Assembly: GCF_006345805.1 (NCBI RefSeq)
Contig: NW_021833461.1
Location: 9,540-73,539, forward strand
DNA from: Octopus sinensis
Lineage: Eukaryota
Reading direction: 5' to 3'
Length of the DNA stretch: 64,000 nucleotides
Shown: positions 1-60,572 of the stretch, piece by piece
Layout of the letters: each line of letters opens with the position of its first letter
How positions within the stretch are numbered: position 1 is the stretch's first letter
The notes under the pieces: generated by a model
The model's database searches: none
What the model was told of the DNA's origin: nothing
The model's input: only the letters and a program-made list of their open reading frames with translations
Position numbers and translations under genes: made by a program

Positions 1-8
1 GAAATTAA

Positions 9-231
9 TTGTTATCGCCATATTAATATGGCAGTCTTATAGATATAAAACTAAAAGCTGTCGCGGATTAGCTCCATGAGGCCATCGCCTTAAGATAGCT
101 TGTTCGAAGGTTATAATGGACACAGTTAGTGTGTCAAATAGCTATCTTAAGGCGATGGCCTCATGGAGCTAATCAGCGACAGCTTTTAGTCTTATATCTA
201 TAAGACTGCCATATTAATATGGCGATAACAA
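9..231. mobile_element. Foldback fragment of non-coding HHR element family A (window edge)
   Basis: Inverted arms ~9-99 and ~139-231. Sequence matches 12573-13237 and 21226-21621 (ctaagc-rich core ttaaggcgatggcctcatggagctaat). Right arm runs into (TA)n. Confidence 0.8.
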
Positions 232-234
232 TAT

Positions 235-12542: not shown

Positions 12543-12572
<30 letters not shown>

Positions 12573-12573
<1 letters not shown>

Positions 12574-13235
12574 ATAGAAATATTAAAATTACTAAGTCTC
12601 TCTAAAAGAGAACAACGGCAGCGTTCCCGGAAAATATTAGTTATCGCCATACTAATATGGCATTCTTATAAAAATAAGAAAAAATAAGAAAAAAGCTGAC
12701 CGCTTATTAGCTCCATGAGGCCATCGCCTTAAGTTAGCTATTTGATACACATCTGTATCCATATAACCTTTGAACAAGGGAGGTCAGTCGCTCCACACTA
12801 CTTCTTATTTTCTTATTTTTTCTTATTTTTATAAGAATGCCATATTAGTATGGCGATAACTAATATTTTCCGGGAACGCTGCCGTTGTTCTCTTTTAGAG
12901 AGACTTAGTAATTTTAATATTTCTATTATTGAAAACAAGTGGATGTATTCCACCGAAGCTAGGTAAATAAAACCTTTGAACAGAGATTGTCGGAAGCGAC
13001 ACCTACTGGTTTGGCTACGCTGCATTGAAAAGGGGCAATACCCCGAAACGCGTCTGTAGCTGCCGGCCAAGTAGTGTGGAGCGACTGACCTCCCTTGTTC
13101 AAAGGTTATATGGATACAGATGTGTATCAAATAGCTAACTTAAGGCGATGGCCTCATGGAGCTAATAAGCGGTCAGCTTTTTTCTTATTTTTTCTTATTT
13201 TTATAAGAATGCCATATTAGTATGGCGATAACTAA

Positions 13236-13237
<2 letters not shown>
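12573..13237. mobile_element. Family A HHR element, head-to-head inverted insertion in (TA)n
   Basis: Left arm 12573-12803 is the reverse complement of the family A unit; right arm 12804-13237 carries the HHR. Confidence 0.85.
13019..13060 (+). ncRNA. Type I hammerhead, U3-A8 compensatory core
   Basis: GCTGCA-TTGAAAA-GGGG caata CCCC-GAAA-CGCG-TC-TGTAGC. Confidence 0.85.
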
Positions 13238-13303
<66 letters not shown>

Positions 13304-16037: not shown

Positions 16038-16155
16038 ATATATATATATATATATATAAGGTTAATCCAAACAAGAAAACAAAAAAGACAACAACGCAAA
16101 GAGGTGGAACAATTAAAGTATTATTAGGCGCTCAGGAAAAAATGGAAGAAGGAGG

Positions 16156-16190
16156 GTATGACGTTTCGAGCGGGGCTCTTCGTCGGAAAC
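16156..16190 (-). ncRNA. Minimal type I hammerhead (Neptune pLTR)
   Basis: Minus strand: GTTT-CCGACGA-A-GAGC ccc GCTC-GAAA-CG-TC-ATAC; weak helix I. Confidence 0.65.
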
Positions 16191-17855: not shown

Positions 17856-17886
<31 letters not shown>

Positions 17887-19524
17887 ATGAGTGAAGGTAT
17901 GAATGTATGTGTGTGTGTGTACATATGTAATGTATGTATGTATGCGTGTGTGTGCGTATGTATGCGTGTGTGTGTGTATGTGTGCGTGTGCGTGTATATG
18001 TTGGTGTGTGCGTATGTGAGTGTGAGTGTATGGGTGTATGTCATGCATGTGTGTGCGCGTGCAGGCGAGTGTGTGTGTAAGTATGTGTGTGTGTAGGTAT
18101 GTGTGAGTGTGTATGTGTGTATGTCTGTGTGTATGCGTGTGCGTATGAGAGTATGTAATTATGTGTGTGTGTATATGTGTATGTGTATGGGTGTATGTAT
18201 GTATGTATGTGTGTGTGAATGTGTGTAAGTATATGTGTGTGTGCGTATATGTGTGTGTATGTGTGTGTATGTATGTGTGTATGTATGTGTGTAGGCGTGT
18301 GTGTATAGGTGTATGTGTGTATGTATGTATGGGTGTGTGTCTGTGTATGTTTGTGTGTGTGTGTATGTATGTATGTATGAGTGAAGGTATGAATGTATGT
18401 AAGTGTGTGTGTGTATGAATGTATGTAAGTGTGTGTGTGTACGTATGTAATGTATGCATGTATGCGTGTGTGTGTGTGTATGTATGCGTGTGCGTGTAGG
18501 TGCGTATGTATGTATGTGGGAGTGTAGGTGTGTGTGTGTGTGTGTATGTGTGCGTGTGCGTGTATATGTGTGTGTATGTGTGTGAGTGTGAGTGTATGTG
18601 TGTATGTCTGTGTGTATGTATGTCTTAAGTATGTATGTGTGTGTATGTATGTATGTGTGTGTATGTGTATGTGTGTGGGTATGTGTGTGTATGTGTGTGT
18701 ATGTATGTGTGTAAGTGTGTGTAAGTGTATGTATGTAGGTATGTAGGTGTGCGCACAGGCATACATGCATGTGTGTGTATGTATGTATACATACGCACGC
18801 ACGCACACGAAGCACGCTCACACACACAACACACAAACAATACAACGCACGCATATGGAGCCGACCCCACCCGAGGCCCGTGCCAAGGCGCGCGCGCGCA
18901 GACCCCCGAACACCCACACCACGAGAACCGAAGATCCATCAACCCAAGAACCCGAAAGAAGGGGGGTGCGCCAGGATGCAATTATATGTATGTGTGTGTG
19001 CATTCGTGTAAACGTGTGCGTGTGTAGGTATGTATGTATGTATGTGTGTGTGCATACGTGTATGTGTGCATGTGTGTGTGTGTGTATGTAAGTATGTGTG
19101 TAAAGTATGTATGTACAATGTGTGTGTGTGTGTATGTGTGTATGTATGTGCGTATGTATGTGTGTATGTATGTATGTATGTATGTATTTATGTATGTGTG
19201 TATGTGTGTGTGTAAGTGTGTATGTGTGTGTGTATGTGTGTATGTATGTATGTATGTGTGTATGTATGTGCATGTTTGTTTGTTTGTTTGTGTGTGTATG
19301 TATGTATATATGTATGTGTGATTAAATGTGTGAATGTATGTACGTAGATGTGTATACGTATGTGTGTGTGTGTGTGTGAACGGGCGTGTGTGTGTGCGCG
19401 TGGGTATGTAAGGTGTGGAAGAATGTGTGCGTACAAGTGAGTGAGTAGGTTGTGTGTGGGTGGTGTGTTGGAGGTAGGTGTGTAGGAGGTAGGTATGTGG
19501 GGGTATTTTTTCGAAAAAAAAAAC

Positions 19525-21190
19525 CTAAGAGGAGGGGGCTGTGTTGAGTTCGTGTGGGGTAGTGGTTTGTAGGGTGAAGATTTAGCGTTGCTCCAAGTGG
19601 AGCCTAGATAGTGGACGACCATTGTGTGGGGGGAGACCAAACACTGAGATGTCATCTGGGGAATGGCTGGCCGAGCGGAAGTGGCGTGCGACGGGAGAAA
19701 AAGAGTGTAGGCGAACGTCCCTCAGATGTTCTGCGAATAGGTCAGACAACCGGCGTCCCGTCTGTCCTACATACCGCATCCCGCATAGGTTGCATTTAAT
19801 GCAGTATATGAGGCCAGACGAGGTGCACGTAAAAGAGTGTCTAATACGTACAGTTCGCCGGTTGGAGCCGGTGACAGCAGTGGTGTTGGTGATGAAGGGG
19901 CAGGTGTTGCAACGGGATCTAGAGCACGGGAAAGATCCGTGTGGGGCTGAGGGGGAAGGAGAGAGGGTGCTGTGGACCAGGAGGTCGCGTAGATTCTGGG
20001 CTCGTTTGAAGGAGGACAGGGGTGGGTTGGGGAAAATGGGGCGGGTTGTGGGATCGAGCTGGAGGCGACGGAAAAGGAGGGGGAAGGGTGTGCGGTTGGG
20101 GGGGTGAGAGGAAGGTGGTGCGGTCGATGCGACGGGCGCGGGCGAAGGCATTTGAGATGAGTATAGGTGGGTAACCTCGGAGTCTTAACAGGCGGGCCAG
20201 GTATTGAGATTGGGTCTCGAAAACCTGGTCGCGGCTGCACAAGCGTCGGTGGCGGAGGAACTGGGAGTAGGGGATGGCTCGTTTGGTGTGGAAGGGGTGG
20301 GAGGAGGAGAAGTTGGGATAGAGGTGGGAATCCGTGGGTTTAAAGAAGGCGGTGGTGGTGAGAGAGTGGGAGGGGTGGTCGATTCGGAGAGAGATGTCAA
20401 GGAAGTTGACAGAGGTGTTGGAGATGGTTGAGGTGAATTGTAGGGAGGGGTGAAAGTTGGAAAGGAAAGAGATGAATTGGCAGAGAATTTCACGGGAAAG
20501 GGAGGTGGCACCTATGCAGTCGTCTATATAGCGACCGTACAGTTCAGGGGTCGGCCTGGAGAATTGGGAGAATACTTGGGCCTCAATGTAGCCAAGAAAG
20601 AGATTAGCGAAATTGGGGCCCATTCTAGTTCCCATCGCGACCCCGGACATCTGTTGGTACGTTTCCCCGGCGAACGTGAAACAGTTGAGGGTTAGAACGA
20701 GCTCTGCCAGGCGGAGAAGTGTGGGGGTGCTGGGGGTGGGGTCGGGACGACGGTCGAGGAAGTGTTGGAGGGCTAGGAGACCGTCATTGTGGGGAATCAC
20801 TGGGTACAGGGATTTTACATCTAAAGTGAAGAGGAGGTGTGAGGGGCTGGAAGGGAAGGAAAAGGAATTGAAGAGACGGAGGGCGTGGTTGGTGTCGTGT
20901 ATGTGGGATGGGAGGGCTGCGACTAAGGGGGACAGGATGCGGTCGAAGTATAGGGAAATGTGTTCAGTGGGGCAATTACAGGCAGAGACTATGGGACGGC
21001 CAGGATTATTGGGTTTATGGATCTTGGGAAGGAAATAGATGGTGGAGGTGCGGGGTGTGCGGACGATGAGGTTGGTGGCGGTGGGGGGGAGAGCAGTAGA
21101 GGAGATGAGGTCGTGGATGGTGGAGGACACTCGCTGTTGGTAGGAGGAGGTGGGATCGGAGGGAAGGAGGCGATAGAAGAGGGGATTTTG
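19525..21190 (-). pseudogene. Penelope-like RT + GIY-YIG endonuclease (Neptune-type), frameshifted
   Basis: FLPKIHK..PGRPIVS, TLDVKSLY, GVAMGTRMGPNFANLF, YGRYIDD; Cys linker PCSRSRCNTC; IYCIKCNLCGMRYVGQTGRRLS..EH. Confidence 0.93.
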
Positions 21191-21225
21191 AAATACATAT
21201 ATATATATATATATTTATATATACA

Positions 21226-21616
21226 TAGAGAGACTTAGTAATTTTAATATTTCTATTATTGAAAACAAGTGGATGTATTCCACCGAAGCTAGGTAAATAA
21301 AACCTTCGAACAGAGATTGTCAGAAGCGACACCTACTGGTCTGGCTACGCTGCATTGAAAAGGGGCAATACCCCGAAACGCGTCTGTAGCTGCCGGTCAA
21401 GTAGTGTGGAGCGACTGACCTCCCTTGTTCGAAGGTTATATGGATACAGTTTGTGTATCAAATAGCTAACTTAAGGCGATGGCCTCATGGAGCTAATAAG
21501 CGGACAGCTTTATTCTTATTTTTATAAGAATGCCATATTAGTATGGCGATAACTATTATTTTCCGGGAACGCTGCCGTTGTTCTCTTTTAGAGAGACTTA
21601 GTAATTTTAATATTTC

Positions 21617-21621
<5 letters not shown>
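21226..21621 (+). mobile_element. Family A HHR element: one ~363-bp unit plus ~33-bp terminal redundancy
   Basis: agagagacttagtaattttaatatttctattat at both ends; (TA)n flanks. Confidence 0.88.
21349..21390 (+). ncRNA. Type I hammerhead (family A)
   Basis: Identical to 13019-13060. Confidence 0.85.
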
Positions 21622-21659
<38 letters not shown>

Positions 21660-21847: not shown

Positions 21848-22449
21848 TAAGAAATATTGAGTTTCTAAATCTCTCGTAGAGAGGTGTACGGTGGTGGAGC
21901 GATATAATGGTTGTATACTGTCAATCTAACAACAACGTGACAGTAGGGGGTACACCACCGTTATATAGCCCTAGGAGGCATCGAACGCCTCCTGACAGCT
22001 TCGACACATTTTATCCTGTGTCCTTATATACACATACGAAGGGGAGACAAACACCCCCAACTGCCGGAACTGCATCTAGGGACACCGTGTTTAAGGATCA
22101 TTGTCCTTCATCGGCCTAGAATAGCAGACACCGGTCAGCCGGCGATATCTGTCTCGACTTCGTATCTGTATATATCTATAGTCAGTGAAGTCTATTCACT
22201 GATTATCAAAATAAGAAATATTGAGTTTCTAAATCTCTCGTAGAGAGGTGTACGGTGGTGGAGCGATATAATGGTTGTATACTGTCAATCTAACAAGAAC
22301 GTGACAGTAGGGAGTACACCACCGTTATATAGCCCTAGGAGGCCTCGAACGCCTCCTGACAGCTTCGACACATTTTATCCTGTGTCCTTATATACACATA
22401 CGAAGGGGAGACAACACCCCCAACTGCCGGAACTGCATCTAGGAACTGC

Positions 22450-23476: not shown

Positions 23477-23634
23477 GTATATATATATGTATGTTATATT
23501 ATATGTATATATATATTGTTATATTTCGGAATGGTCATTTTGCCAGTTTAGCCAATAAAAGCACACGCACTATATATTTGGTGTTACTTTGCTTCAGTGT
23601 TATTTATTTTTTACATTAATCTTAATCTTATTTC

Positions 23635-23679
23635 GGCCAGAGTTCTTTCGTCACACTCCTATGACCGCATCAGTGGTCC
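23635..23679 (-). ncRNA. Hammerhead variant in the inverted pLTR
   Basis: Reverse complement of 27533-27577 (one substitution). Confidence 0.65.
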
Positions 23680-24281
23680 TTTGTTTTCTTCTCACTTATT
23701 TGTGTCTCTCCTTACTAACCGTCAGCCATTTTGTATTTCTATTGTATGTCTTCATTTGCGCATGCTTATATCTCTATGTGCGTTTATGTTTATTTAGTGT
23801 GTGTATGTGGGGGATACCTATAATATTTGTATCTTCTGTTTATATATGTTCATGTAATTTGTATTTTGCAGTTTGTTTTTTGTTTTTTGTTTTTGTTTTT
23901 GTTTTTGTTTATTCTTATTTTGTTCATGTGTTTACATCCACCCATTATTATCATTACATATGCTTGTATGTATGTATGTATGTATGTATAACAACAATAC
24001 TAGTAATAATAATAATAAATTGAATCGAAAATATATATATATATATATTATATATATATATACACATATATATATACATATACACACACATATATATATA
24101 TAGTTATTTATTCATTTATCTGTGTATTTATTGTTTTCAGGATCCTCTATCGTCATATGTTGTGGTGTGTGTTAGTGCTCCATTCTAGTTTTCTCTATAT
24201 GTATATGTATATATATATGTACATATATATGTATATATATGTATATATATATATGTATATATATATATGTATATATATATG

Positions 24282-24313
<32 letters not shown>

Positions 24314-24386
24314 AAATAAATAAATAAATGACTATATATATATATGTGTGTATATGTATATGTATATATATATATATATGTATATA

Positions 24387-24955
24387 TTGTCATCAAAAAA
24401 GGGGGTAGAATTAATTAATTGTTAATAAATTCGACCAAGCAGTATTCGGTATGTAAAGACCATTTACGGTAATTTGAAGTATTATTTATAAAAATATGGT
24501 AAAGTATAAAAATTCACTTTACCACACACCGAACTTTTCAGAAATAGCAGCCAAAGATTTGGCTATTTCTTCAACTGCAAATAAAAGTCTCCAGACAATG
24601 CATACTCAAAATAACTCACATAGGTATAAGGGAAAAACAATGAAAGATCACATCCATATACGATACCCGAGGACAGTCTGTTTCTGGATTTGTGGGTAAA
24701 ACGCCACTTTTCCTTCATCAGCTCAGAGATTTCTTCTGATTTAGATTTGAAAATACTAAGAATCAAACATACCCGTCCGATATCTGTAACAACGGACAAA
24801 CCATGCCAGACACCCAGTACTAGCGAATCCAAGGCATTGTCTGGAGACTTTTATTTGCAGTTGAAGAAATAGCCAAATCTTTGGCTGCTATTTCTGAAAA
24901 GTTCGGTGTGTGGTAAAGTGAATTTTTTTACTTTACCATATTTTTATAAATTAAT
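24387..24955. mobile_element. Family E HHR element with inverted arm, nested in the (TA)n of the PLE pLTR
   Basis: 24834-24950 is the reverse complement of ~24486-24601; host pLTR sequence resumes on both sides. Confidence 0.85.
24667..24726 (-). ncRNA. Type I hammerhead, canonical core (family E)
   Basis: Minus strand: CTGAG-CTGATGA-A-GGA aaa GTGG..CCAC aaa TCC-A-GAAA-CAG a CTG-TC-CTCGG. Confidence 0.85.
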
Positions 24956-25068
24956 ATATATGTATATATATATTTTTTTTTTCGATTCAATTTATTATTA
25001 TTATTACTAGTATTGTTGTTATACGTACATACATACATACATACAAGCATATGTAATGATAATAATGG

Positions 25069-27039
25069 GATGATGTGGACAATTGTTCTGGGACCCCAGA
25101 AACGTACAGGAAATAATTTCCAAGCCTGGAACAATGATATCCCGGCACTGTATGGACTTCGCAAGGACCATAAAATAATTACTGACCCTATAGCAGGACC
25201 ACCAACAAGACCAGTCTGTGGAGCGAATATCGCTAGCAATTACAGCATCTCCTACTTCCTCTCAATGATCATACGCCCTATAATCCGAATGTCACCTGAT
25301 GTTTGTGACAGCACAGAAGATCTCCTCAGCAGGATCGATGACTGTAACAGAACTTGTGACCTGACAGGATGTATGGTGGATAGCATGGATGTGGTATCCC
25401 TATACCCATCGATCGACGTAGATTTTGCGGTGGAGAAGTGCGTGGAGATGATCAATGAGAGCCAGGTGGAGTTCTGTAATGTCAACACAGAAGAACTGGG
25501 CCTCCTACTTAGACTGACATGTAATACTGAATACTTAGATAAACATAATCTTAGTAGTTTCTGCCCCAGTAGATGTTTAAGAGTAGGTAGACCGCCCAAA
25601 TTACTTCTATGACTAGGAAGACACATATAGAAAGATGGCGCGGATGGACCAGAGCCATACGGAGCCCTGCAAATGTCCATCAGATAAAGAAAATGATCGC
25701 ACATGCACTAGGAGCTAGTATAAGAATTACCCTAAAAGGCCACACGTTTAAGTTTAATAATAAAATATATGCCCAGGACGAGGGGGCAGCCATCGGCGTT
25801 AGTATCGCTGGTGATGTGGCCAACCTTTTCATGGTATGGTGGGACAGAAGGCTTAAAGAACGCCTAACACAGAACTCCATACTCGTAAACATGTACTCCC
25901 GTTATGTTGATGATATCAACATAGTGGTAAAGGCACCCCCACAAGAGAGCAATGTTGATATAGTAATAGAAACTAATACTATGGAGAGCATCCAGCAAAT
26001 AGCTAACTCCATCCACCAGAGTATTAAGGTCACAATAGACTACCCCACTAAACACCCCAACCATAGACTACCAGTACTAGACACCGAACTCTGGCTAGAA
26101 ATTGTGAATAATAAAACCCAAATCCTTTATTCATACTATGCCAAACCTATGGCCTCAAAATACTTGATCCACCGGAACTCAGCCATTGCGGACAATGCCA
26201 AATTCAATATTTTGATGGCAGACCTCGTCAGAATAATGAGAAATGTGCCATGCATGTGCGAGCCCACAGAGTTAAAGAGACACATACAATATTTCATTCA
26301 CCGCATGCAGTTCTCAGGTTACAGCCATAAAGAAAGGATCAGAGTATACAAAGGAGCCATTAAGAAATTTGATAATATATTATGTAATGATAGGAATGGT
26401 ATTTGCCCACTCTATAGGAACAAGTCATGGAACACTATAGAAAGGACAAAAAATAAAATAGGGAAGGTCAACTCTTGGTATGATAGCCATAAATACCAGA
26501 GTGTCATGTTCGTTGACACCACTCCTGGAGGTGAACTGGCGTATCGCTTTAGAAGGACCCTAGACAAACTTAAGCTAAGAATTAAGGTTGTTGAAAAGCC
26601 AGGCAACCCTATCAAATCTATAATTGGTAGAACCTATCCTTTTAGTAGAAGCCCCTGTACAGATAGGTACTGTACTGTATGTAGATTTAGCCCACAAACA
26701 AACTGTAAAGCCAGAAATATGGTCTATAGTATAAGATGTATAGAGGGACGATGCAGTAACAAGACAACGACATACGTAGGGGAAACGGCAAGAAGCATAG
26801 GAGAGCGGGTAAATGAGCATTGGAGACAACTCAAAGAAGGTAAAAGCTCATCGATTCTGTACCAACACGCCGAACAAAAACATGGGGGATCAATCAATAA
26901 CATAGAAATTAAAATATTATCCACACATAGATCAGATGCAACAATTAGACAAATTACAGAAGCTACACACATAATAGAAAATAAACCTAGCCTGAATAGA
27001 AAACTAGAATGGAGCACTAACACACACCACAACATATGA
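25069..27039 (+). pseudogene. Penelope-like RT + C-terminal GIY-YIG endonuclease, 5'-truncated, one frameshift near 25600
   Basis: LYGLRKDHK, PPTRPVCGA, SMDVVSLYPSI, GAAIGVSIAGDVANLFM, YSRYVDD, CTDRYCTVC..C, VYSIRC..YVGETARSIGERVNEH, EA..I..NKPSLN. Confidence 0.93.
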
Positions 27040-27532
27040 CGATAGAGGATCGTGAAAACATAATAAATACACAGATAAATAAATAAATAACTATATATAT
27101 ATATATGTGTGTGTATATGTATATGTATATATATATTTTTTTTTCGATTCAATTTATTATTATTATTACTAGTATTGTTGTTATACATACATACATACAT
27201 ACATACATACATACATACATACATACATACATACATACAAGCATATGTAATGATAATAATGGGTGGATGTAAACATATGAACAAAATAAGAATAAAAACA
27301 AAAAACAAAATACAAAATACAAAATACAAATTATATGAACATATAAAATTACAAATTACATGAACATATATAAACAGAAGATACAAATATTACAGGCATC
27401 CCCACATACACACACTAAATAAACATAAACACACATAGAGATATAAGCATGCGCAAATGAAGACATACAATAGAAATACAAAATGGCTGACGGTTAGTAA
27501 GGAGAGACACAAATAAGTGAGAAGAAAACAAA

Positions 27533-27577
27533 GGACCACTGATGCGGTCACAGGAGTGTGACGAAAGAACTCTGGCC
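27533..27577 (+). ncRNA. Minimal hammerhead variant in the 3' pLTR (CUGAUGC core)
   Basis: GGACCA-CTGATGC-G-GTCAC aggagt GTGAC-GAAA-G aa C-TC-TGGCC; same strand as the ORF. Confidence 0.7.
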
Positions 27578-27755
27578 GAAATAAGATTAAGATTAATGTA
27601 AAAAATAAATAACACTGAAGCAAAGTAACACCAATATATAGTGCGTGTGCTTTTTATTTATTGCTAAACTGGCAAAATGACCATTCCGAAATATACAATA
27701 TCTGTTTCAACACACGACTTCACATAAAAAATCTTGCACAACAAATATTTAAACG

Positions 27756-27792
<37 letters not shown>

Positions 27793-28544: not shown

Positions 28545-28664
28545 CATATATTCTTTTATTGCTTTATTTGTTTCTGTCATTTGACTGCGGTCATGCTGAA
28601 ACAAATAAAAGAACAAAAGAATATATAGCTATATATATATATATATTATATATATATATATATA

Positions 28665-28836
28665 AAAGTTGAGTTGTGGGGTATCGCACGAGTGGGATTA
28701 TATAAGAAAAAAGGTTTGAAAATGCAATTTAAACGATGTTTATTTACTTAAATGTAACTTTTGACAATCTTTTACCAAAGAGTGAAACCGGTTAAGTAAA
28801 TAAACATCGTTTAAATTGCATTTTCAAACCTTTTTT

Positions 28837-28840
<4 letters not shown>
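28665..28840. mobile_element. Family K foldback fragment with the 3' half of an HHR
   Basis: ~52-bp inverted arms (28699-28751 / 28792-28843); spacer ends GAAA-CCGG-TT-AAGTAA. Confidence 0.65.
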
Positions 28841-28881
<41 letters not shown>

Positions 28882-29292: not shown

Positions 29293-29390
29293 ATATATAT
29301 ATATATACATATATTCTTTTATTGCTTTATTTGTTTCTGTGATTTGACTGCGGCCATGGTGAAACAAATAAAAGAACAAAAGAATATATA

Positions 29391-29430: not shown

Positions 29431-29650
29431 AAGAACATCTGAAAAATGAAATACCTAGAAATGGATAATGTGGTACCGGTTTCAGATTCTTCAAAATACG
29501 TCTGCCAACATATATTTGACTTATCCTCATCAGCCACATATACCTCGACAATATTTCAAATGTTGCCACATCTATGCCAGTACACTCGTCTGAACGCCAA
29601 AACGTTGACAGAACGAGAACAGTGAAGAAGTTTCAATGAAAATAGTATCG
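29428..29650 (-). mobile_element. Family M HHR element fragment, 3' end in (TA)n
   Basis: Contains a canonical HHR; abuts the 5' end of a truncated LINE. Confidence 0.7.
29468..29539 (-). ncRNA. Type I hammerhead, canonical core (family M)
   Basis: Minus strand: ATGTGG-CTGATGA-GGAT..ATCT-GAAA-CCGG-TA-CCACAT. Confidence 0.9.
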
Positions 29651-30385
29651 ACATGAGTGATGATACCTCTTTCCAAGTGCACATTACCAGGATGGTGACA
29701 AAGTTCAGACGACTGGGTGGGTGGATCCTAAGAACATTCAGAACCAGAGATAAGGAAACCATGATGGTCCTCTGGCGGACATTCGTCCTCAGTCGCCTGG
29801 ATTACTGCTCACAGCTATGGTCACCCACCAGTGTAAAATTAACAGCGGACCTTGAAGCAATCCAGAGAAGATTCACAGAGAGAATCGTCTCTTTGCAACA
29901 GCTCAGCTACTGGGAAAGATTGAAACAGCTAAGACTCTACTCCCTGGATAGAAGACGGGAGAGGTAATATATGTCTGGAAGATCCTGGAAGGAATTGTAC
30001 CAAATTTTGGCATTGTAAGCTACACCAATGCTAGAACGGGACGACACTGCATAGTGCCAAAGATCCCAGCAATGCCGTCACGCTTCAGGACCAGCTTCTG
30101 CAACAGCCTGGGCTTCAAGAGCCCACAGCTTTTTAATATTCTTCCAAAGAGTCTGGGGAACTTGCACAAAGTAGATGTAGCGGTTTTTAAATCAAAGCTG
30201 GACATCTTCCTGTCGAGAGTCCCAGATGAACCTACCTCACGGCAAGAGGTGCGAATGAGAGTAGCTATATCAAACTCCATTCTTCACCAAGTGCCACATA
30301 TTAGACGAGGTTCTTCGCAATAACAGTGTAGCACAAAACGGCGGTGCATCAGCATGACCGCAGCTCTGAGCTGAAACTAGAAAAA
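29651..30385 (+). mobile_element. 3' fragment of CR1/L2-group LINE
   Basis: GWILRTF, SRLDYCSQLWSP, LEAIQRRFT, YWERLKQLRLYSLDRRRER; colinear with 63278-64000. Confidence 0.9.
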
Positions 30386-30427: not shown

Positions 30428-30514
<87 letters not shown>

Positions 30515-30516
<2 letters not shown>

Positions 30517-31200
30517 CCAATTAAGTACTGAACACGAAAAAGTGGACAGTCAACATGCTAGATATAGACGTCAAATCGCCATTCTCCACAAAAGATTATG
30601 TTCTCAGATCAAACTCAACACCAACCCAAGCAATAAACAAGTGAAAATATACGAAAAACAATACTCATCCATGTACTGAATCAGTTTCTACTATTATTAT
30701 CCGTAAGGATACCCGTAGTCTTCGTCAGCATGGCCGATATGAATGCAATCTGCTGAACTAGATGCAAAAACGATACCGGAGTTTCATCATGTGCGTAGAG
30801 TTCAACCAATTACATTCGAATGTGTATTTCAAATGCCTTCCACCTTGGCGCGTTGAGACCCGAAGAAAATAGCCTGCAGCTAATAATTAGCAGCAGTCAA
30901 TTTATCGGTTAGAGAACATATTTATTTTTTATAAAATTAATAAGGGTAGAAATCAATATTTATCAATTAAAACCAGTGGTCTAGCATATTAAAAAAATCC
31001 GAAGATTAAATATTTATATATACCAATTAAGGACTGAACACGAAAAAGTGGACAGTCAACATGCTGTCTATATCTAGCATGTTGACTGTCCACTTTTTCG
31101 TGTTCAGTCCTTAATTGGTATATATAAATATTTAATCTTCGGATTTTTTTAATATGCTAGACCACTGGTTTTAATTGATAAATATTGATTTCTACCCTTA

Positions 31201-31210
<10 letters not shown>
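30515..31210. mobile_element. Family H HHR element: ~505-bp unit, terminal redundancy and inverted arm
   Basis: ataccaattaag at ~30515 and ~31020; 31066-31207 is an inverted copy spanning the unit junction. Confidence 0.87.
30669..30733 (-). ncRNA. Type I hammerhead, canonical core (family H)
   Basis: Minus strand: CCATG-CTGACGA-AG-ACTA..TATCC ttac GGATA..TAGT-A-GAAA-CTGA t TCAG-TA-CATGG. Confidence 0.87.
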
Positions 31211-31249
<39 letters not shown>

Positions 31250-35057: not shown

Positions 35058-38021
35058 CAGTGGTTTCCAACCAGGGTTCCGCCAGTACAGTCCAGGGGTT
35101 CCGCAAGAAGTTACATAAATGCTAAACTCGACAGTAAATTTTAATTCTCCTGTGCAGATATGTGTGTACATGTTAGGCCTACGTGTATATCTACGAGTTG
35201 CACGCCAGCGTAGATGACCCTGATCCTTGGTGTGTATGTGTAGGCCTACGACGTGTACAACTACGAGTTACTCGCCAGCGTAGATGACCCTGATCCTTGG
35301 TGTGTACATGTACGTGCACATCTACGAATTGCATGCCAGCTTAGATGATGGTTTAGTTTTCTTTTGTAAAATACGAGTGACTATATTTGGAAGAAACATT
35401 TTAACTGCGTAAGCCATTTATTTAGGTGTTGTTGTTAATACGCCTTTTAAAATATCTTTAGCTTTTTAAAAGGTGTTTTTGTAAAATATTTTTCTTGTAT
35501 GACTTCTATTAATATATGGTCAAATGTTAAGATTAAAAAATCCGGAAGAGAGTTGAATTACATATGTAGAAAAAAAATAAGAAATAGGGAAACTGATACT
35601 AAATTATAAGATATGTAAATATGCATAAATATTAATTCCTTACAAATTTCTAAATTAGAACAATGAACAAATAAATGACATTTTAAATTCAAATCCGAAA
35701 ATATATTTTAATTATTATATGCATATTGTTTAAATATAATGAAATACCTAGTACTAAAAAAAAACATTAATAAAAAAGCTAAATTTTACATCATTTAACT
35801 CGCTACACTTTAAAGATCATTTCGTCCTGCCACTATTAGGTTTGCTTTCATATATATATACAATTCTGCTTACAGCCTTACAAGTATGGATAGATTTCTG
35901 AAAAAAACGTAAGTTAGATACAGATGAAGAGACGCAGGGTCTGAGGCAGTCTGTTGAAGCTGCAGCCACTGCCAGTGATGCTGCCTCGTCGAAATTACCA
36001 AGAAATGATGGAATTAACCTGCAACTAAAAGTTCGTCAATATTGTGAAAACTACATAGCTCTGGGAATGGAAACCCAGACTGCTCTTCACCTTTGTGTAC
36101 TGTTTCTGGGGAGAAGCTGGCTAATAGTACTATAGCACCAGCCAAGCTGAAACGACACTTAACAACTAAACATCCAGAGTTGTCAGGCAAAAAAGAACAA
36201 TATTTTAAAAGAGAATTGGCATTTAATAAAAGGCAAGTTTGCCAAAAAGTTCAAGTTGAGTGACAAAGGACAAGAAGCAAGTTATGCTGTGGCGGAGATA
36301 GTTGCAAGAAAAATGAAATCTCATACCATCGCTGAAACTGTAATTTTACCTGCATGCCAGGAAATAGTGAGGATAATGTTTGGAGAGGATGCTGTATCAG
36401 ATCTAAATAAAATTCCATTTTCTGACAACATAATAAGTAGGCGCATTCAAGACATGTCAGGAGACATTGAGTGCAATATTAAGTCAAAAATACTGAAACA
36501 TAAGTTGTTTGCACTTCAAGTTGATGAGAGTACAGACATCACTGGTAAATCACAGCTCCTTGTATTTGTTCGTTTTATTAATGATGAAACTATTGTAGAA
36601 GACGTCCTGTATTGCAAAGAGTTGCCAGAAACAAGAAAAGGACAAGATGTATTTGATGTTTTAAATTCATATTTAGAGTATTGTGGATTGAACTGGAAAA
36701 ACTGTGTTGGTATTTGTACAGATGGTGCCCCTGCAATGACAGGATGTCTTAAAGGCTTTGTCCCAACCGCACAAAAACAAAATTCAAATGTTTCATTCAT
36801 AGAGAAGCACTAGTTGCTAAAACTTTTGGACCTGAACAAAAATCTGTATTGGGTATGGTAGTGAAAATAAATAATTACTTCAAAATGAGGCCACTTAAAT
36901 GTCGACAGTTTGCGAAACTTTGTGTGGGTATGGAAGCAGACCATTTCACCTTAATCCAGCACACAGAAATACGATGGTTGTCAAGGGGAAAAGTATTGTC
37001 TCGTTTTTACGAATTAAGAGAAGACCTTTTGACCTTTTGTTTGCAAGAAAACCTGAAAGACTTTGAAAAATGTTTGAGTGATGACCATCGGTGTTCCAAG
37101 TTAGCATATTTTGCCGATATATTTCATGAGCTAAGCCTCTTGAACAATGGCATGCAGGGCATGAACGAAAATATATTGTCTTCTACTGACAAAATAAATG
37201 CTTTTCAGAAGAAATTGACAATATGGAAGAAACACATAGCTGCAGGAAATTTGGAAATGTTTCCAAGTGTTTTTAAAAGGAATTGTCAAGAAACTTCGTT
37301 ACTAATTTTGAACCATTTGCACACTTTGTTAACAAATCTTGACAAATATTTTCCATCGATATCTGTTGACCAGTATGACTGGATTAGAAACTCATTTGTG
37401 GAATTTGAGCCATTTGAAGAACAGTTCACATTATCAGAAGAAGAAGAACTTGCTAGTGTTTTAAATGACAGAACATTAAAGTTGAAGCATTCTGAGCTTC
37501 ACCTGAATGCATTTTGGTTGCTGGTTGAAAAGGAATATCCTGCAAACGCCCAGAAAGCGCTGCGACTTCTTGTGCAGTTTTCAACCACCTACTTCTGTGA
37601 ATTTGGATTTTCAACTCTGACAGCCATCAAGCACAAGAAGCGAGCACAATTGCTGTCTGTGGAAGATGAACTTCGTGTGTGTCTATCGACCCAATCTTAG
37701 GGAGTTGTGCAAGAAACACCAGGCTCAAGTTTCTCATTGAGTTTTTGATGAGAATAAATGTAATCTATTCAAACTAAAGTTTTTTTAATACATGATTTAA
37801 TAATAACTGTAGATGCAAGAATAAAATTGCATATGTACGTGACAATTTTTTACAGTTTGTGATTTTATTGTAAATAAATCTGAACATGAGTATTTTCATT
37901 TCATTAATTAAATGCTGTTTTTTTTTTTGCGTAAGACAATTAAATTATTGCACAGGGGCTCCTCGAGCCAGTGGAATGTTTCCTTGGGGTTCCGCTCCAG
38001 CAAAAAGGTTGAAAAGTACTG
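35058..38021 (+). mobile_element. Full-length but inactive hAT transposon, Buster/Charlie type
   Basis: TIRs CAGTGGTTTCCAACC / GGTTGAAAAGTACTG; 8-bp TSD ccctaacc / cactaacc with central TA; ~62-bp subterminal repeats at 35160-35350. Confidence 0.93.
35886..37740 (+). pseudogene. hAT transposase with BED finger remnant, frameshifted
   Basis: [49 protein letters not shown]. Confidence 0.92.
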
Positions 38022-42260: not shown

Positions 42261-43344
42261 CGGTAATCTAGATTTATTTTAATCAGAAGAGAGATGATAT
42301 TGTAGAAGTCTTTATAAATTATGCAATATGCCAGACATTTGAAGTTAAGCTTTCATAAACGAGTATGATCTGGCAGCTGGCACCATGCTTTCTATAATTC
42401 TTATAGCTGCTAATATAGCCATGAGCAAGGATGGAACACCCTCTCTTGGCTCAGTAGAACATTGGGGTTTGTGGCTGCTGGAAGGAGAGAGGAGAGCAGC
42501 GACAACCGGTACTCATGTCCGTTGAGTTGACAGAATCTATGTGAAACGAAGTAGCTTGAACAACGACACAACGTGCCACCAGGTCCGAGAATCGAACCTA
42601 CTATTTTACGATCGTAAGGCCAACATCCTAACCACTAGTCCACGCACCTTGCGGAACTCATTAATTATAAGGATTCTCTGAAAGAAGAGAACACAAATAT
42701 TCACGAGTTAGTAAATATCCAGATCAATGCTGCATCCCTCTGCATTCTAAGTTCACATCCCATGTAGGCTGATGTGACCTTTTATCCTTCTGGTTACGAT
42801 AAAATAACTCATCAGTGTAATAGTGAGATGCATTTAATCCAACACACACACAATCACACACACAAACACACACACACACACACACACACAGATTGTAGGC
42901 ATAAATGTGTGTGTCCTTGTATCCAAATTAAAAAAGGCGTCGATAAAATGGAAAGTGAGTCGGTTATTGGGTGTTTCTTTAATCGCATATAGCCCTGCCC
43001 ACGGACTTTGAGTATAAATTAGAAATTTTTACTATTATTCTCATCATAATCACCGTCGTTGGGTGTGTCCTGCCGCAATGGTTCTGTGAAAGTTTTCTTT
43101 GTGTAAGCGAATTTATTAATTGTAAGCTTCCCAAACAACTCGTAAAAGAAAGAAAACTACTGCGGTTTCATCGAAAAGGTGTTTAACGAGCATGAAACAA
43201 GTCACTCTACCCGACACACGTCCTTCATAAAATAGTTTTTTTTTCTTTCTGGCGTTAGATTTCGTTAAAATTTCTTGTTTATGCTGTTGTTGTTGCTAAT
43301 GCTGTTTAGTTTTGGGTCACTCCTGAACAAACAGACGCATGAAA

Positions 43345-44514: not shown

Positions 44515-44584
44515 ATTAGCTCCGAAAGGCGTTATCTGCCATGACCATCCCGTCTTTCATTCAGAGATATTGTATCTAGGAATT

Positions 44585-49018: not shown

Positions 49019-49049
<31 letters not shown>

Positions 49050-49057
<8 letters not shown>

Positions 49058-50846: not shown

Positions 50847-50925
<79 letters not shown>

Positions 50926-51242: not shown

Positions 51243-51294
<52 letters not shown>

Positions 51295-51440
51295 ATATTT
51301 CGGAATGGTCATTGCCAGTTTAGCCAATAAAAACACACGCACTATATATTTGGTGTTATTTTGCTTCAGTGATATTTATTTTTTACATTAATCTTAATCT
51401 TATTTCGGCCAAAGTTCTTTCGTCACACTCCTGTGACCGC

Positions 51441-53239
51441 AATTACAGAATCTCCTACTTCCTCTCAATGATCATACGCCCTATAATCAGGATGTCACCT
51501 GATGTGTGTGACAGCACAGAAGATCTCCTAAGCAGGATCAGTGACTGTAACAAAACTTGTGACTTGACAGGATGTATAGTAGGTAGCATGGATGTGGTAT
51601 CCCTATACCCATCGATTGACGTAGATTTTGCAGTGGAGAAGTGCGTGGAGATGATCAACGAGAGCCAGGTGGAGTTCTGTAATGTCGACACAGAAGAACT
51701 GGGCCTCCTACTTAGACTGACATATAATAGTGAATACTTAGATAAACATAATCTTAGTAGTTTCTGCCCCAGTAGATGTTAAGAGGTAGACGCCTACAAT
51801 TACTTCTATGGCTAGGAAGACACATATAGAAAGATGGCGCGGATGGACCAGAGCCATACGGAGCCCCGCAAATGTCCATCAGGTAAAGAAAATGATCGCA
51901 CATGCACTAGGAGCTAGTATAAGAGTTACCCTAAAAGGCCACACATTTAAATTAATAATAAAATATATGCCCAGGACGAGGGGGCAGCCATCGGTGTTAG
52001 TATCGCTGGTGATGTGGCCAACCTCTTCATGGTATGGTGGGACAGAAGGCTTAAAGAATGCCTACTGCAGAAATCCATACTCGTAACATGTACTCTCGCT
52101 ATGTTGATGATATCAATATAGTAGTAAAGGCACCCCCACAAGAGAGTACTGTTGATATAGTAATAGAAACTAATACTATGGAGAGCATCCAGCAAATAGC
52201 TAACTCCATCCACCAGAGTATTAAGGTCACAATAGACTACCCCACTAACACCCCAACCATAGACTACCAGTACTAGACACTGAACTCTGGCTAGAAATTG
52301 TGAAAAAAATAAAACCCAAATCCTTCATTCATACTATGCAAAACCTATGGCCTCAAAATACCTGATCCACCGGAACTCAGCCATTGCGGACAATGCCAAA
52401 TTCAATATTTTGATGGCAGACCTCGTCAGAATAATGAGAAATGTGTCACGCATGTGCGAGCCTACAGAATTAAAGAGACACATACAGTATTTCATTCACC
52501 GCATGCAGTTCTCAGGTTACAGCCATAAAGAAAGGATCAGAGTATACAAAGGAGCCATGAAGAAATTTGATAATATATTATGTAATGATAGGAATGGGAT
52601 TTGCCCACTCTATAGGAACAAGTCATGGAACACTATAGAAAGGACAAAAAAGAAAATAGGGAAGGCCAACTCTTGGTATGATAGCCATAAATACCAGAGT
52701 GTCATGTTCGTTGACACCACCCCTGGAGGTGAACTAGCGTACCGCTTTAGAAGGACCCTAGATAAACTTAAACTAAGAATTATGGTTGTTGAAAAGCCAG
52801 GCAACCCTATCAGATCTATAATTGGTAGAAGCTATCCTTTTAGTAGAACTCTCTGTACGGATAACTATTGCACTGTATGTATAGATTTAGCCCACAAACG
52901 AACTGTAAAGCCAGAAATGTGGTCTATAGTATAAGATGTATAGAGGGACGATGCAGTAACAAGACAGTAACATACGTAGGGGAAACTGCAAGAAGCATTG
53001 GTGAGCGGGTGAATGAACATTGGAGACAACTCAAGGAAGGTAAAAGCGCATCGATTCTGTACCAACACGCCGAACAAGAACACGGGGGATCAATCAATAA
53101 CATAGAGATTAAGATATTGTCCACACATAGAACAGATGCAACAATTAGACAAATTACAGAAGCTACACATATAATAGAAAATAAACCTAGCCTGAATAGA
53201 AAACTAGAATGGAGCAATAGCGCACACCACAACATATGA
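51441..53239 (+). pseudogene. Penelope-like RT + GIY-YIG, multiple frameshifts
   Basis: GSMDVVSLYPSI, YSRYVDD, YVGETARSIGERVNEH. Confidence 0.92.
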
Positions 53240-53749
53240 CAATGGTGGATCCTGCAAACATAATAAATACACAGGTAATGAAAGAAATAAAAATGAATAT
53301 CTATATATATGTATATGTGTATATATGTGTATATGTATATGTGTATATATGTGTGTATATATGTATATATATATATGTGTATATGTATGTATATATATAT
53401 GTATATTCTTTTTATTTATTATTTATTTTTTTTTTTCGATTAGATTTATTATTATTATTACTAATATTGTTGTTATACATACATACAAGCATATGTAATG
53501 ATAATAATGGGTGGATGTAAACACATGAACAAAATTAGAACAAAAGCAACAACAACAAAAACAAAATACAAATTACAAGAATGTATATAACCAGAAGATA
53601 CAAAATATTACAGGCATCCCCCCCACACACACACTAAATAAACATAGACGCACATAGAGATATAAGCATGCGCAAATGAAGACATACAATAGAAATACAA
53701 AATGGCTGACGGATAGTAAGGAGAGACAAGTAAGTGAGAAGAAAACAAA

Positions 53750-53793
53750 GGACCACTGATGCGGTCACAGGAGTGTGACGAAAGAACTTTGCC
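53750..53793 (+). ncRNA. Hammerhead variant in the 3' pLTR
   Basis: Same as 27533-27577 with an altered 3' helix I strand. Confidence 0.55.
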
Positions 53794-53968
53794 GAAATAA
53801 GATTAAGATTAATGTAAAAAATAAATATCACTGAAGCAAAAAACACCAAATATATAGTGCGTGTGTTTTTATTGGCTAAACTGGCAATATGACCATTCCG
53901 AAATATAACAATATCTGTTTCAACACACGACTTCACATAAAAAATCTTGCACAACAAATATTTAAACG

Positions 53969-54011
<43 letters not shown>

Positions 54012-54016
<5 letters not shown>

Positions 54017-54259
54017 ATACAATATGTTACATTACTCGGTAGTCAAGATAAAACTCTGAGTTTCAGATGCCGAAGTGGAAATCCACAACACCATCTCTTC
54101 GCATAACCGAAGAGATGGTGTTGTGGATTTCCACTTCGGCATCTGAAACTCAGAGTTTTATCTTGACTACCGAGTAATGTAACATATTGTATAGATAAAT
54201 TTCCTCTATTTACATAATATTGAGGTCTCTTTCTTTCTTTTGTTATCTTACCGTTTTAT

Positions 54260-54262
<3 letters not shown>
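54012..54262. mobile_element. Family J foldback: perfect ~90-bp inverted arms, 6-nt spacer, ~65-bp unpaired tail, in (TA)n
   Basis: 54012-54101 / 54108-54197; no HHR in the retained part. Confidence 0.75.
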
Positions 54263-56108: not shown

Positions 56109-57103
<995 letters not shown>

Positions 57104-57286
57104 TAAAAGGGCTTAGTAAAATAAATTACTTTGCCGCATACTGAACTCATTAGAAATAGCAGCTAAAAAAACTTTTTTAAAACTATTCTAATACTTAAAG
57201 AAAACCTCTCTCATATAGTGTTTGCTCAATTCAACTCACGAAAGTATGGGGGTAGAGACATTAAAAAATCAAATGCAAAGGTTATT

Positions 57287-57339
57287 TGAGAACGTACGTT
57301 TCAAGATTAGTCAAACTCGACATTTCTATCATCAGCTCA
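57287..57339 (-). ncRNA. Type I hammerhead (family F, copy 1)
   Basis: Reverse complement of 59037-59089. Confidence 0.8.
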
Positions 57340-57844
57340 GAACTCCCTGGTTTGGATTTGAAAACACTGAAAGTGGGAGCATACCCTTTCGGCTTCTTAT
57401 CGCTTCTGAAGATCTGCTCGAAACTAACAGTGCCAACAAACTCAAAAATGCAAGCGAAGAATTTCTGCTCTCCCCTTTCCACCAGCGTGGGTTAAAATCA
57501 GCAAACACTATGCTTTTTTCGATAAAATTCGAGGCATTATATAGAGAGAGATGAATTATAATTTCAACAATTGAGGGTAAAATTAATTAATTAATCAATT
57601 TCACCAAGTATTCAGTATGCAAAGGGACCATTTAAGGCGAATTCAAATTATTACATTATATAAAAGGGCTTAGTAAAATAAATTACTTTGCCGCATACTG
57701 AACTCATTAGAAATAGCAGCTAAAAAAACTTTTTTAAAACTATTTCTAATACTTAAAGAAAGCCTCTCTCATATAGTGTTTGCGCAATTCAACTCACGAA
57801 AGTATGGGGGTAGAGACATTAAAAAATCAAATGCAAATGTTATT

Positions 57845-57897
57845 TGAGAACGTACGTTTCAAGATTAGTCAAACTCGACATTTCTATCATCAGCTCA
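57845..57897 (-). ncRNA. Type I hammerhead (family F, copy 2)
   Basis: Reverse complement of 59037-59089. Confidence 0.8.
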
Positions 57898-58402
57898 GAA
57901 CTCCCTGGTTTGGATTTGAAAACACTGAAAGTGGGAGCATACCCTTTCGGCTTCTTATCGCTTCTGAAGATCTGCTCGAAACTAACAGTGCCAACAAACT
58001 CAAAAATGCAAGCGAAGAATTTCTGCTCTCCCCTTTCCACCAGCGTGGGTTAAAATCAGCAAACACTATGCTTTTTTCGGTAAAATCCGAGGCATTATAT
58101 AGAGAGAGATGAGTTATAATTTCAACAATTGAGTGTAAAATTAATTAATTAATCAATTTCACCAAGTATTCAGTATGCAAAGGGACCATTTAAGGCGAAT
58201 TCAAATTATTACATTATATAAAAGGGCTTAGTAAAATAAATTACTTTGCCGCATACTGAACTCATTAGAAATAGCAGCTAAAAAAACTTTTTTAAAACTA
58301 TTTCTAATACTTAAAGAAAACCTCTCTCATATAGTGTTTGCGCAATTCAACTCACGAAAGTATGGGGGTAGAGACATTAAAAAATCAAATGCAAAGGTTA
58401 TT

Positions 58403-58455
58403 TGAGAACGTACGTTTCAAGATTAGTCAAACTCGACATTTCTATCATCAGCTCA
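58403..58455 (-). ncRNA. Type I hammerhead (family F, copy 3)
   Basis: Reverse complement of 59037-59089. Confidence 0.8.
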
Positions 58456-59036
58456 GAACTCCCTGGTTTGGATTTGAAAACACTGAAAGTGGGAGCATAC
58501 CCTTTCGGCTTCTTATCGCTTCTGAAGATCTGCTCGAACCTTTGCATTTGATTTTTTAATGTCTCTACACCCATACTTTCGTGAGTTGAATTGAGCAAAC
58601 ACTATATGAGAGAGGTTTTCTTTAAGTATTAGAAATAGTTTTAAAAAAGTTTTTTTAGCTGCTATTTCTAATGAGTTCAGTATGCGGCAAAGTAATTTAT
58701 TTTACTGAGCCCTTTTATATAATGTAATAATTTGAATTCGCCTTAAATGGTCCCTTTGCATACTGAATACTTGGTGAAATTGATTAATTAATTAATTTTA
58801 CCCTCAATGTTGAAATTATAATTCATCTCTCTCTATATAATGCCTCGGTTTTACCGAAAAAAGCATAGTGTTTGCTGATTTTAACCCACGCTGGTGGAAA
58901 GGGGAGAGCAGAAATTCTTCGCTTGCATTTTTGAGTTTGTTGGCACTGTTAGTTTCGAGCAGATCTTCAGAAGCGATAAGAAGCCGAAAGGGTATGCTCC
59001 CACTTTCAGTGTTTTCAAATCCAAACCAGGGAGTTC

Positions 59037-59089
59037 TGAGCTGATGATAGAAATGTCGAGTTTGACTAATCTTGAAACGTACGTTCTCA
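59037..59089 (+). ncRNA. Type I hammerhead (family F, copy 4)
   Basis: TGAG-CTGATGA-T-AGA aat GTC..GAC taa TCT-T-GAAA-CGTACG-TT-CTCA; palindromic ACGTACGT helix III. Confidence 0.82.
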
Positions 59090-59596
59090 AATAAGCTTTG
59101 CATTTGATTTTTTAATGTCTCTACCCCCATACTTTCGTGAGTTGAATTGAGCAAACACTATATGAGAGAGGTTTTCTTTAAGTATTATAAATAGTTTTAA
59201 AAAAGTTTTTTTAGCTGCTATTTCTAATGAGTTCAGTATGCGGCAAAGTAATTTATTTTACTGAGCCCTTTTATATAATGTAATAATTTGAATTCGCCTT
59301 AAATGGTCCCTTTGCATACTGAATACTTGGTGAAATTGATTAATTAATTAATTTTACCCTCAATTGTTGAAATTATAATTCATCTCTCTCTATATAATGC
59401 CTCGGATTTTACCGAAAAAAGCATAGTGTTTGCTGATTTTAACCCACGCTGGTGGAAAGGGGAGAGCAGAAATTCTTCGCTTGCATTTTTGAGTTTGTTG
59501 GCACTGTTAGTTTCGAGCAGATCTTCAGAAGCGATAAGAAGCCGAAAGGGTATGCTCCCAATTTCAGTGTTTTCAAATCCCAAAACCAGGGAGTTC

Positions 59597-59649
59597 TGAG
59601 CTGATGATAGAAATGTCGAGTTTGACTAATCTGAAAACGTACGTTCTCA
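59597..59649 (+). ncRNA. Type I hammerhead (family F, copy 5)
   Basis: As copy 4, with TCT-GAAAA variant. Confidence 0.75.
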
Positions 59650-60004
59650 AATAAACTTTGCATTTGATTTTTTAATGTCTCTACCCCCATACTTTCGTGA
59701 GTTGAATTGAGCAAAACTATATGAGAGAGGTTTTCTTTAAGTATTAGAAATAGTTTTAAAAAGTTTTTTTAGCTGCTATTTCTAATGAGTTCAGTATGCG
59801 GCAAAGTAATTATTTTACTAAGCCCTTTTATATAATGTAATAATTTGAATTCGCCTTAAATGGTCCCTTTGCATACTGAATACTTGGTGAAATTGATTAA
59901 TTAATTAATTTTACCCTCAATTGTTGAAAATATATATATATATATAAATATATAAATATATATATATATATATGTATACTATATATATATATATATATAT
60001 TAAA

Positions 60005-60120: not shown

Positions 60121-60285
60121 GTATATATATATAAATAAATATATATATATATATATGTATATATATGTATATATATATATATATATATAAATATATATAT
60201 ATATTATATATATATGTTATATATATATGTATAATATATATAAATATATATATATATATATAAATAATATATTATAATATATATA

Positions 60286-60568
60286 GCAACGAATTGCTTA
60301 CCAAATACCGAATTTAGAAATAGCAGTCAAAGTATTTCTTACTAAAAAGGGAGATGTCAGTAAAAAACAGCAATTGCTGTTTTTACTGAGATCTCCCTTT
60401 TTAGTAGAAGAAATAGCTATAACTCTTTGACTGCTATTTCTAAATTCGGTATGTGGTAAGGCAATTCGTTGCTAAACCCTTTATTGCTTATTATTACTTA
60501 AATTTTTCCTTAAATACTTGGTGTAATTGATAATTATTCCAAATTAATTAATTTCACCCTTCATTATT

Positions 60569-60572
<4 letters not shown>
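60286..60572. mobile_element. Family L foldback fragment related to families E/F
   Basis: Imperfect arms centred on cagcaattgctg (~60368-60379), plus a ~100-bp tail ending aattaattaatttcaccc; shares gctatttct..ttcggtatgtggtaa with E. Confidence 0.75.

Follow-up and report, generated by a model that had tools for sequence, protein, structure and literature searches.

Paired early and full end points in PLE-type fold-back insertions at (TA)n tracts of octopus DNA

Introduction

PLE insertions target (TA)n and carry a tail of 30-40 bp, which is often found at one end only and can lie on either side (PMC8557442). In Pen2a_Av of Adineta, one inverted pLTR carries an optional 31-bp tail at its 3' end, and self-priming has been proposed for this element (PMC3846280). 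For PAc (Poseidon, Anolis), TPRT has been followed in vitro: both strands of the target are cut and extended, and the genomic tail is bounded by two internal RT starts (PMC11167929). The unsolved part of PLE transposition is how insertions acquire an inverted pLTR and a one-ended tail. In LINE-1 twin priming, a 5' inversion arises when internal priming on the same RNA takes place from the second target end; such L1 insertions have inverted and direct parts without overlap, and the position of the second site varies. Metazoan non-LTR retrozymes, finally, have been argued to be non-autonomous PLE derivatives (PMC7229834; bioRxiv 10.64898/2026.07.22.740005). The word 'inverted' is absent from the main text of PMC7229834 and occurs once, in the reference list, in that of the preprint, where 'tail' does not occur.

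Here, we analyse fold-back insertions in a 64-kb stretch of octopus DNA (the window), with a focus on element H. Ten of its 16 PLE-type insertions are fold-backs, which makes the window a good test bed for the origin of the inverted pLTR and the one-ended tail.

Results

PLE-type insertions in the window

The window is animal DNA dense in microsatellites. By our own count, it holds 16 PLE-type insertions at (TA)n tracts, namely ten fold-backs (A1, A2, N1, E, K, H, N2, J, L and F) and six insertions with no inversion (A3, B, M at ~29431 and three of family P; Table 1). The family letters are those of the original prediction, and we infer their mapping to loci from tail length. Both parts of the PLE insertion structure, a partial tandem pLTR and an adjacent inverted 5'-truncated copy, are present: tandems occur in A2, A3, B, H and L, and inverted copies in the ten fold-backs. 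Eight fold-backs are unambiguous (A2, E, K, H, N2, J, L and F), and two are kept apart: N1 is probable only, as its arms lie apart, with the nested E and a TA-rich stretch of ~120 nt in between, and A1 is truncated in its longer arm at the edge of the window. The sample comprises some five independent lineages from a single window.

Table 1. Positions of PLE-type insertions and of the parts of element H (tail, length in nt missing at the other terminus)
Feature	Position	Strand	Tail	Description
H long arm	30509..31065	-		506-nt unit repeated 1.09 times in tandem; hammerhead-bearing non-autonomous PLE derivative; terminates at early site
H inverted short arm	31066..31208	+		copies 3' region and reaches downstream (full) site; flank (TA)n 31209-31246
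H tail	31127..31208	+	82	missing at other terminus; 90 nt counted from TA-run start
H hammerhead-like motif, type I	30669..30733	-		canonical core; predicted cleavage after 30674; own pattern scan
A1 fold-back	1..232			right arm early (232); left arm longer, exits window
A2 fold-back	12571..13240		61	left arm full (12571); right arm partial tandem, early (13240); hammerhead-like cleavage predicted after 13054
A3	21226..21622	+		non-inverted partial tandem, family A; terminates at full site
B	21849..22446	-		non-inverted, distant A relative; end homologous to A full site; variant hammerhead-like motif at 22081
N1	23513..27755			5'-truncated RT + C-terminal GIY-YIG PLE (ORF 25591-27039, +); full end 27755; probable inverted pLTR, early end 23513
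E fold-back	24388..24951		96	nested in N1 pLTR microsatellite; long arm full (-, 24388), short arm early (24951); hammerhead-like motif 24672
K fold-back	28666..28844		34	early 28844, full 28666; hammerhead-like motif in spacer, cleavage predicted after 28793
N2	51287..53968		54	second copy of the ORF family; 155-nt inverted arm ends early (51287); full 53968; junction microhomology 3 nt
J fold-back	54012..54261		64	early 54012, full 54261; hammerhead-like cleavage predicted after 54157
L fold-back	57100..59929		95	two arms of ~2.5 tandem 557-nt units; left early, right full; canonical hammerhead-like cores
F fold-back	60284..60572		98	E and L relative; early 60284, full 60572; central perfect palindrome
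Family P	16058-21214	-		second PLE family; RT, CX4CX2C linker, GIY-YIG
Family P	~243-2811; 49023-50847	+		as above
M	29431-29700	-		hammerhead-like motif, canonical core, predicted cut at 29474; end 44 nt downstream at TA tract; adjoins LINE fragment

Among the non-inverted copies, the three of family P have one end in common, and M could not be assigned to either end class. The family P pLTR holds a long CA/TG microsatellite and a minimal hammerhead-like motif ~100 nt before its end. The first 34 nt of A3 (21226-21259) repeat its own 3' end exactly, giving a tandem of ~1.09 units, and this overshoot equals that of the H long arm. The alignment of B with A scores 64, against a maximum of 34 in 300 shuffles.

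Family N supplies RT and endonuclease sequence

For the RT-endonuclease ORF of N1, the best of 109 matches is a protein named Octopus vulgaris, with 93% identity. The ORF features YVDD at 105, followed by the linker (356), GIY-YIG together with two Cys (379) and His motifs (408 and 425); the order in family N is RT, CX4CX2C linker and C-terminal GIY-YIG with CCHH-type residues. An RVT_1 match was obtained at E=4e-4, under the curated cut-off, and a linker motif follows YxDD in 15 of 18 longer homologues. By this domain order, family N is a C-terminal EN+ PLE of the Neptune/Nematis-type layout. The label 'Naiad-like', under which it was first described, is refuted, as Naiad carries an N-terminal GIY-YIG ahead of the RT (PMC8557442). 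Hydra was also ruled out: it is described with no CCHH, a CxCX5C linker and DKT (PMC8557442), in contrast to the CCHH-type residues and CX4CX2C of family N, whose homologues carry DKS. In family N, an ATG-initiated frame of 27 codons extends across the early site and the tail (53889-53969 on the plus strand; also ~27677-27756). It had no significant match among 127 fetched proteins and is perhaps an ORF start, by analogy with Adineta Pen2a.

One arm ends at the full site and the other ends early

In all eight unambiguous fold-backs, one arm reaches a downstream ('full') site and the other stops 34-98 nt earlier, and both N1 and the edge-cut A1 agree with this pattern. If arms picked the two sites independently, the probability of mixed pairing in eight out of eight would be at most 0.004. 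Which of the arms is long varies: the early arm is longer in H and A2, the full arm in E, N1 and N2. The early end point is the same nucleotide in N1 and N2, which bypass a longer, 7-nt TA run 58 nt upstream of it. End points fall at homologous positions in A1 and A2, although the two are just 80-84% identical, and are homologous in E, H and L, with the early site of F ~12-15 nt upstream of theirs. Family-specific end points recur 13-28 kb apart. The original prediction had claimed this asymmetry for every inverted insertion with two visible ends, and the eight clear fold-backs bear it out; the three end motifs that it described as recurrent are likewise present where it placed them. Its 'full 3' end', though, is not an RNA end: in A, H and L the tandem units continue beyond this site, which is an internal position.

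The focal element H illustrates the arrangement. Its sense strand is the minus strand, because of the orientation of its hammerhead-like motif, and its long arm reads from 31065 to 30509, ending inside an 8-nt TA run (TA overlap 30509-30516). The inverted arm, which begins ~10 nt further 5', corresponds to the adjacent upstream unit, from which it differs by 0/135 substitutions and one indel, and not to the downstream unit (1/61). The tandem unit runs past the 'full' end, and both termini of H are therefore internal unit positions. Here the predicted asymmetry was correct, but the tail is shorter than the ~95-100 nt that had been estimated (Table 1).

A search for counter-examples among all local inverted repeats found no symmetric PLE fold-back. 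Two symmetric hairpins in TA tracts (28545-28625 and 29305-29390) are duplicates that stem from a SINE-like 3' end, not PLEs, and were left out of the count. The long inverted repeats at 6659, 33125, 43342, 43471 and 46818 have no TA flanks; MITE-like ones of this kind span 6659-6909, 43342-44517 and 46818-47075. Broken ORFs in 36163-37700 resemble what we take to be a hAT transposase, and a Pfam search of 36753-37697 gave no match. A 41-bp hairpin (55454-55494) resembles the TA-flanked element at 11829-12200, with the same start in both, and these may be of the rolling-circle type.

Early sites overlap the target TA

Perfect overlap with TA at the early sites amounts to 1 nt in A, 4 in N, 2 in E, 6 in K, 8 in H, 3 in J, 6 in L and 2 in F. 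The sum of 32 nt compares with 10.8 nt expected for random junctions (P ~3e-6), and P is 0.002-0.006 when the related E, F, H and L are collapsed to one lineage; for the null only, the family A continuation was joined ~2 nt off. TA microhomology, proposed as a check of the asymmetry, is hence above chance at the early sites. The claim of a 'TATA-like run' at the early end holds in part, as perfect overlap ranges from 1 to 8 nt and is 1-2 nt in three of the eight families (1 nt in A2, 2 nt in E and F). At the full sites, the overlap is 3 nt in A and 1 nt in L, and 4 nt in H and 3 nt in B as read off the sequence. The longest nearby TA run is used in H, K and L; it is left unused in N, A, E, F and J, so position matters besides pairing. 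Central junctions show 0-3 nt of microhomology or a palindrome. Around E, the segments 24372-24387 and 24953-24968 could form a 16-nt target-site duplication with a G marker, a weak case given their low complexity.

RNA folding around the two sites

E and L fold alike around both sites (z -3.5 and -5.1, respectively): an 11-bp stem with compensatory changes encloses the inner hairpin and the early site in a multiloop, and a terminal hairpin lies immediately before the full site. F and H fold no better than shuffles (z -1.2 and +0.7). RNAalifold of E, L, F and H retains the inner hairpin alone, with seven pairs, two of them with double changes, so that a structure common to the four families is not established. 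The suggestion that the early end of E, F and H lies in the loop of a conserved hairpin thus applies to two of the four families at best, namely E and L, where the site is in the multiloop.

Arms are closest within an insertion

The arms of A2 show 0/172 differences, compared with 5/223 and 9/301 to A3; those of N2 show 1/153, compared with 5/155 to 14/348 across insertions. Where other copies permit the comparison (A1, A2, N1 and N2), both arms carry the same variant, and no fold-back combines families, non-autonomous ones included. In L, unit variants do not match unit by unit between the arms and partly sort by arm; L also has scattered small indels, and the F arms differ by a 9-nt indel. 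Arm lengths are unrelated in N2 (155 versus ~2530 nt). As assembled, neither arm is contained in the other in five of the ten fold-backs (A1, A2, H, K and L), and the early arm lies wholly inside the full arm in five (E, F, J, N1 and N2). Central palindromes are near-perfect in F, J and H.

Hammerhead-like motifs in the non-autonomous families

A relaxed pattern scan returned 20 hammerhead-like sites, versus 0-5 across 20 shuffles, and seven canonical cores, versus 0-1. It was adopted, together with the shuffles, after an earlier scan with a high score cut-off had found two sites, none within a fold-back. According to the pattern scan, E, H and L have a canonical core, A, B, J and K variant cores, and the motifs face outward in seven of the ten fold-backs. 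Fold z-scores of seven motif regions range from -2.1 to +1.5. Rfam local scans detected none of three predicted hammerheads, the H motif included, and Rfam matches for the whole window comprised microsatellite and miRNA noise below threshold and nothing else among those listed (150 of 237). With their predicted hammerheads, the short families (A, B, E, H, J, K and L) resemble non-LTR retrozymes.

The arms of A2, H, L and E read through predicted hammerhead sites. As for arm starts near the hammerhead (28738-28793 in K, 54102-54157 in J, and 51441, equivalent to 53760, in N2), no more than 2 nt separate the start of the K full arm from the predicted cut, the inverted arm of N2 and both arms of J begin in the hammerhead core or stem I, and the A2 and L arms begin ~10-15 nt past the predicted cut. 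An RT stop at a cleaved RNA end or at the ribozyme fold may set the 5' ends of arms.

Discussion

How could one insertion come to hold two arms with different, fixed ends? We regard the asymmetry as the PLE tail and think it probable, with room for doubt, that a single RNA is primed by both cut ends, each at one of two fixed internal positions. The GIY-YIG endonuclease would cut both strands of the (TA)n target, as it does in vitro for PAc. Each freed 3' end would then prime RT inside an uncleaved multimeric or circular RNA, one at the downstream site and the other 34-98 nt upstream; internal starts are established for PAc, and fixed end points are seen here. RT starts at tail boundaries have been shown for PAc only, and by analogy the boundaries in the window would be initiation sites as well. 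The TA end of the target may pair with a UA-rich stretch and help fix the upstream start, for which the enriched overlap speaks. The ends would use different sites because the two primers share a single RNA, so that an insertion would have to contain one early and one full arm. Finally, the cDNA 3' ends would be joined via the 0-3 nt of microhomology or small palindromes seen at the junctions, and filled in. The strict pairing, together with arms that are closer within than between insertions, is supporting evidence for one RNA, and the read-through of predicted hammerhead sites in A2, H, L and E matches the use of uncleaved RNA by PAc. That two programmed priming sites serve the two ends of a cut TA tract fits the window and in essence repeats the PAc in vitro result; the proposal is supported but not new, and largely restates the published model.

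Some observations count against this two-site priming. PAc shows neither a strand difference in the start site nor homology to the cut DNA, the L variants' failure to match unit by unit gives no support to a single template, and five of the ten fold-backs, together with the central palindromes of F, J and H, would suit a different course: one TPRT event, after which the cDNA snaps back at a palindrome and is copied back, with endonuclease resolution or TA capture placing the second terminus at the other tail boundary. Both elements of this course have been put forward in the literature, namely self-priming at palindromes of the junction (PMC3846280) and EN-driven resolution to account for the tail (PMC8557442). 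Central palindromes or 5' ends that coincide are seen in F, J and H, and an early arm inside the full arm in five of ten, with near-identical arms, is what copying back would leave. We nevertheless regard snap-back as rather unlikely. In A1, A2, H, K and L as assembled, no arm lies within its partner, so both arms need an RNA template, and snap-back would here require spacer inversion or an antisense template; a spacer inversion between the arms might, on the other hand, undo this argument. Moreover, extension by PAc occurs on both strands, and the tail ends coincide with the two sites at which its RT starts (PMC11167929). The near-identity of the arms could also stem from gene conversion or a shared source locus.

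It is quite improbable, in our view, that two separate RNA-protein particles, one per target end, are involved, with a built-in bias such as an asymmetric dimer directing them to different starts. In its favour, a dimer is predicted for PAc (PMC11167929), arm lengths in N2 are unrelated, and some of the L variation sorts by arm. Against it, the two arms share a variant in each of A1, A2, N1 and N2, and families are never mixed in a fold-back, even non-autonomous ones that lack cis preference. A symmetric insertion in which microhomology between the flanking (TA)n and an internal TA run later led to the deletion of one end would account for the enriched overlap and for the use of the longest nearby run in H, K and L. 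Against such a loss, which we consider very unlikely, N1 and N2 use a 4-nt run rather than the 7-nt one, and A2, E and F overlap by just 1-2 nt; no symmetric PLE fold-back is left among the 8-10; the possible, weak duplication is kept beside the early arm of E; loss at the outer end would presumably not relieve the palindrome; and the tail is a general PLE feature that has been reproduced in vitro. That the fold-backs are artefacts of assembly or long reads is scarcely credible, even in a region rich in microsatellites and with the scattered small indels of L, as copies 13-28 kb apart share family-specific end points, substitutions and, in F, the 9-nt indel distinguish the arms, and the same structure has been published for other animals.

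Two-site priming on one RNA might be taken a step further, to an obligatory priming by two primers in which the (TA)n ends occupy one template at a distance of 34-98 nt, with TA-UA pairing seating the upstream end and a conserved RNA fold setting the spacing (the stem of E and L; the terminal hairpin of E, F, H and L). We put this forward tentatively and consider it somewhat less likely to be right than wrong. If true, it would explain the one-ended tail, the inverted pLTR and the near-identical arms in one step, and hammerhead retrozymes would use the full PLE machinery. A partial literature search, which covered work other than the older Drosophila Penelope studies, yielded no statement of obligatory one-of-each pairing, of a two-primer, single-RNA model or of octopus retrozyme fold-backs.

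The core feature is the published PLE tail signature rather than a new class, and the additions are modest: the strict one-of-each pairing, tails of up to ~100 nt, and TA microhomology that is absent from the in vitro study. The insertion anatomy nonetheless ties retrozyme-like repeats to PLE mobilisation and is useful for annotating repeat boundaries in cephalopod genomes.

Finally, we would like to compare the fold-backs with known systems. Unlike in LINE-1 twin priming, the arms overlap and both sites are fixed. As in the PLE insertions described in PMC3846280 and PMC8557442, an inverted 5'-truncated copy lies beside the main copy, the extension is one-ended and on either side, junctions show palindromes or microhomology, and (TA)n is targeted by families with a linker Zn finger. 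The extension is confined to one end in all eight clear cases; in contrast to the published tail of 30-40 bp, it measures 34-98 nt, with K (34) alone in that range and the other seven at 54-98 nt, and it occurs mostly in non-autonomous families, with one end of each kind in eight of eight. The predicted type I hammerheads in short, low-GC tandem units recall retrozymes (PMC7229834; bioRxiv 10.64898/2026.07.22.740005), yet the H and L units, at 506 and 557 nt, exceed the 150-450 bp quoted there. AT-rich targets are shared with PAc (PMC11167929), and two internal start sites downstream of the hammerhead that bound the tail, cutting and extension of both strands and the use of uncleaved RNA would be as well. 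PAc starts, as described there, lie in an AC-rich stem-loop and show neither target homology nor strand bias, whereas the early sites in the window overlap TA by 1-8 nt and are strictly paired with a full site.
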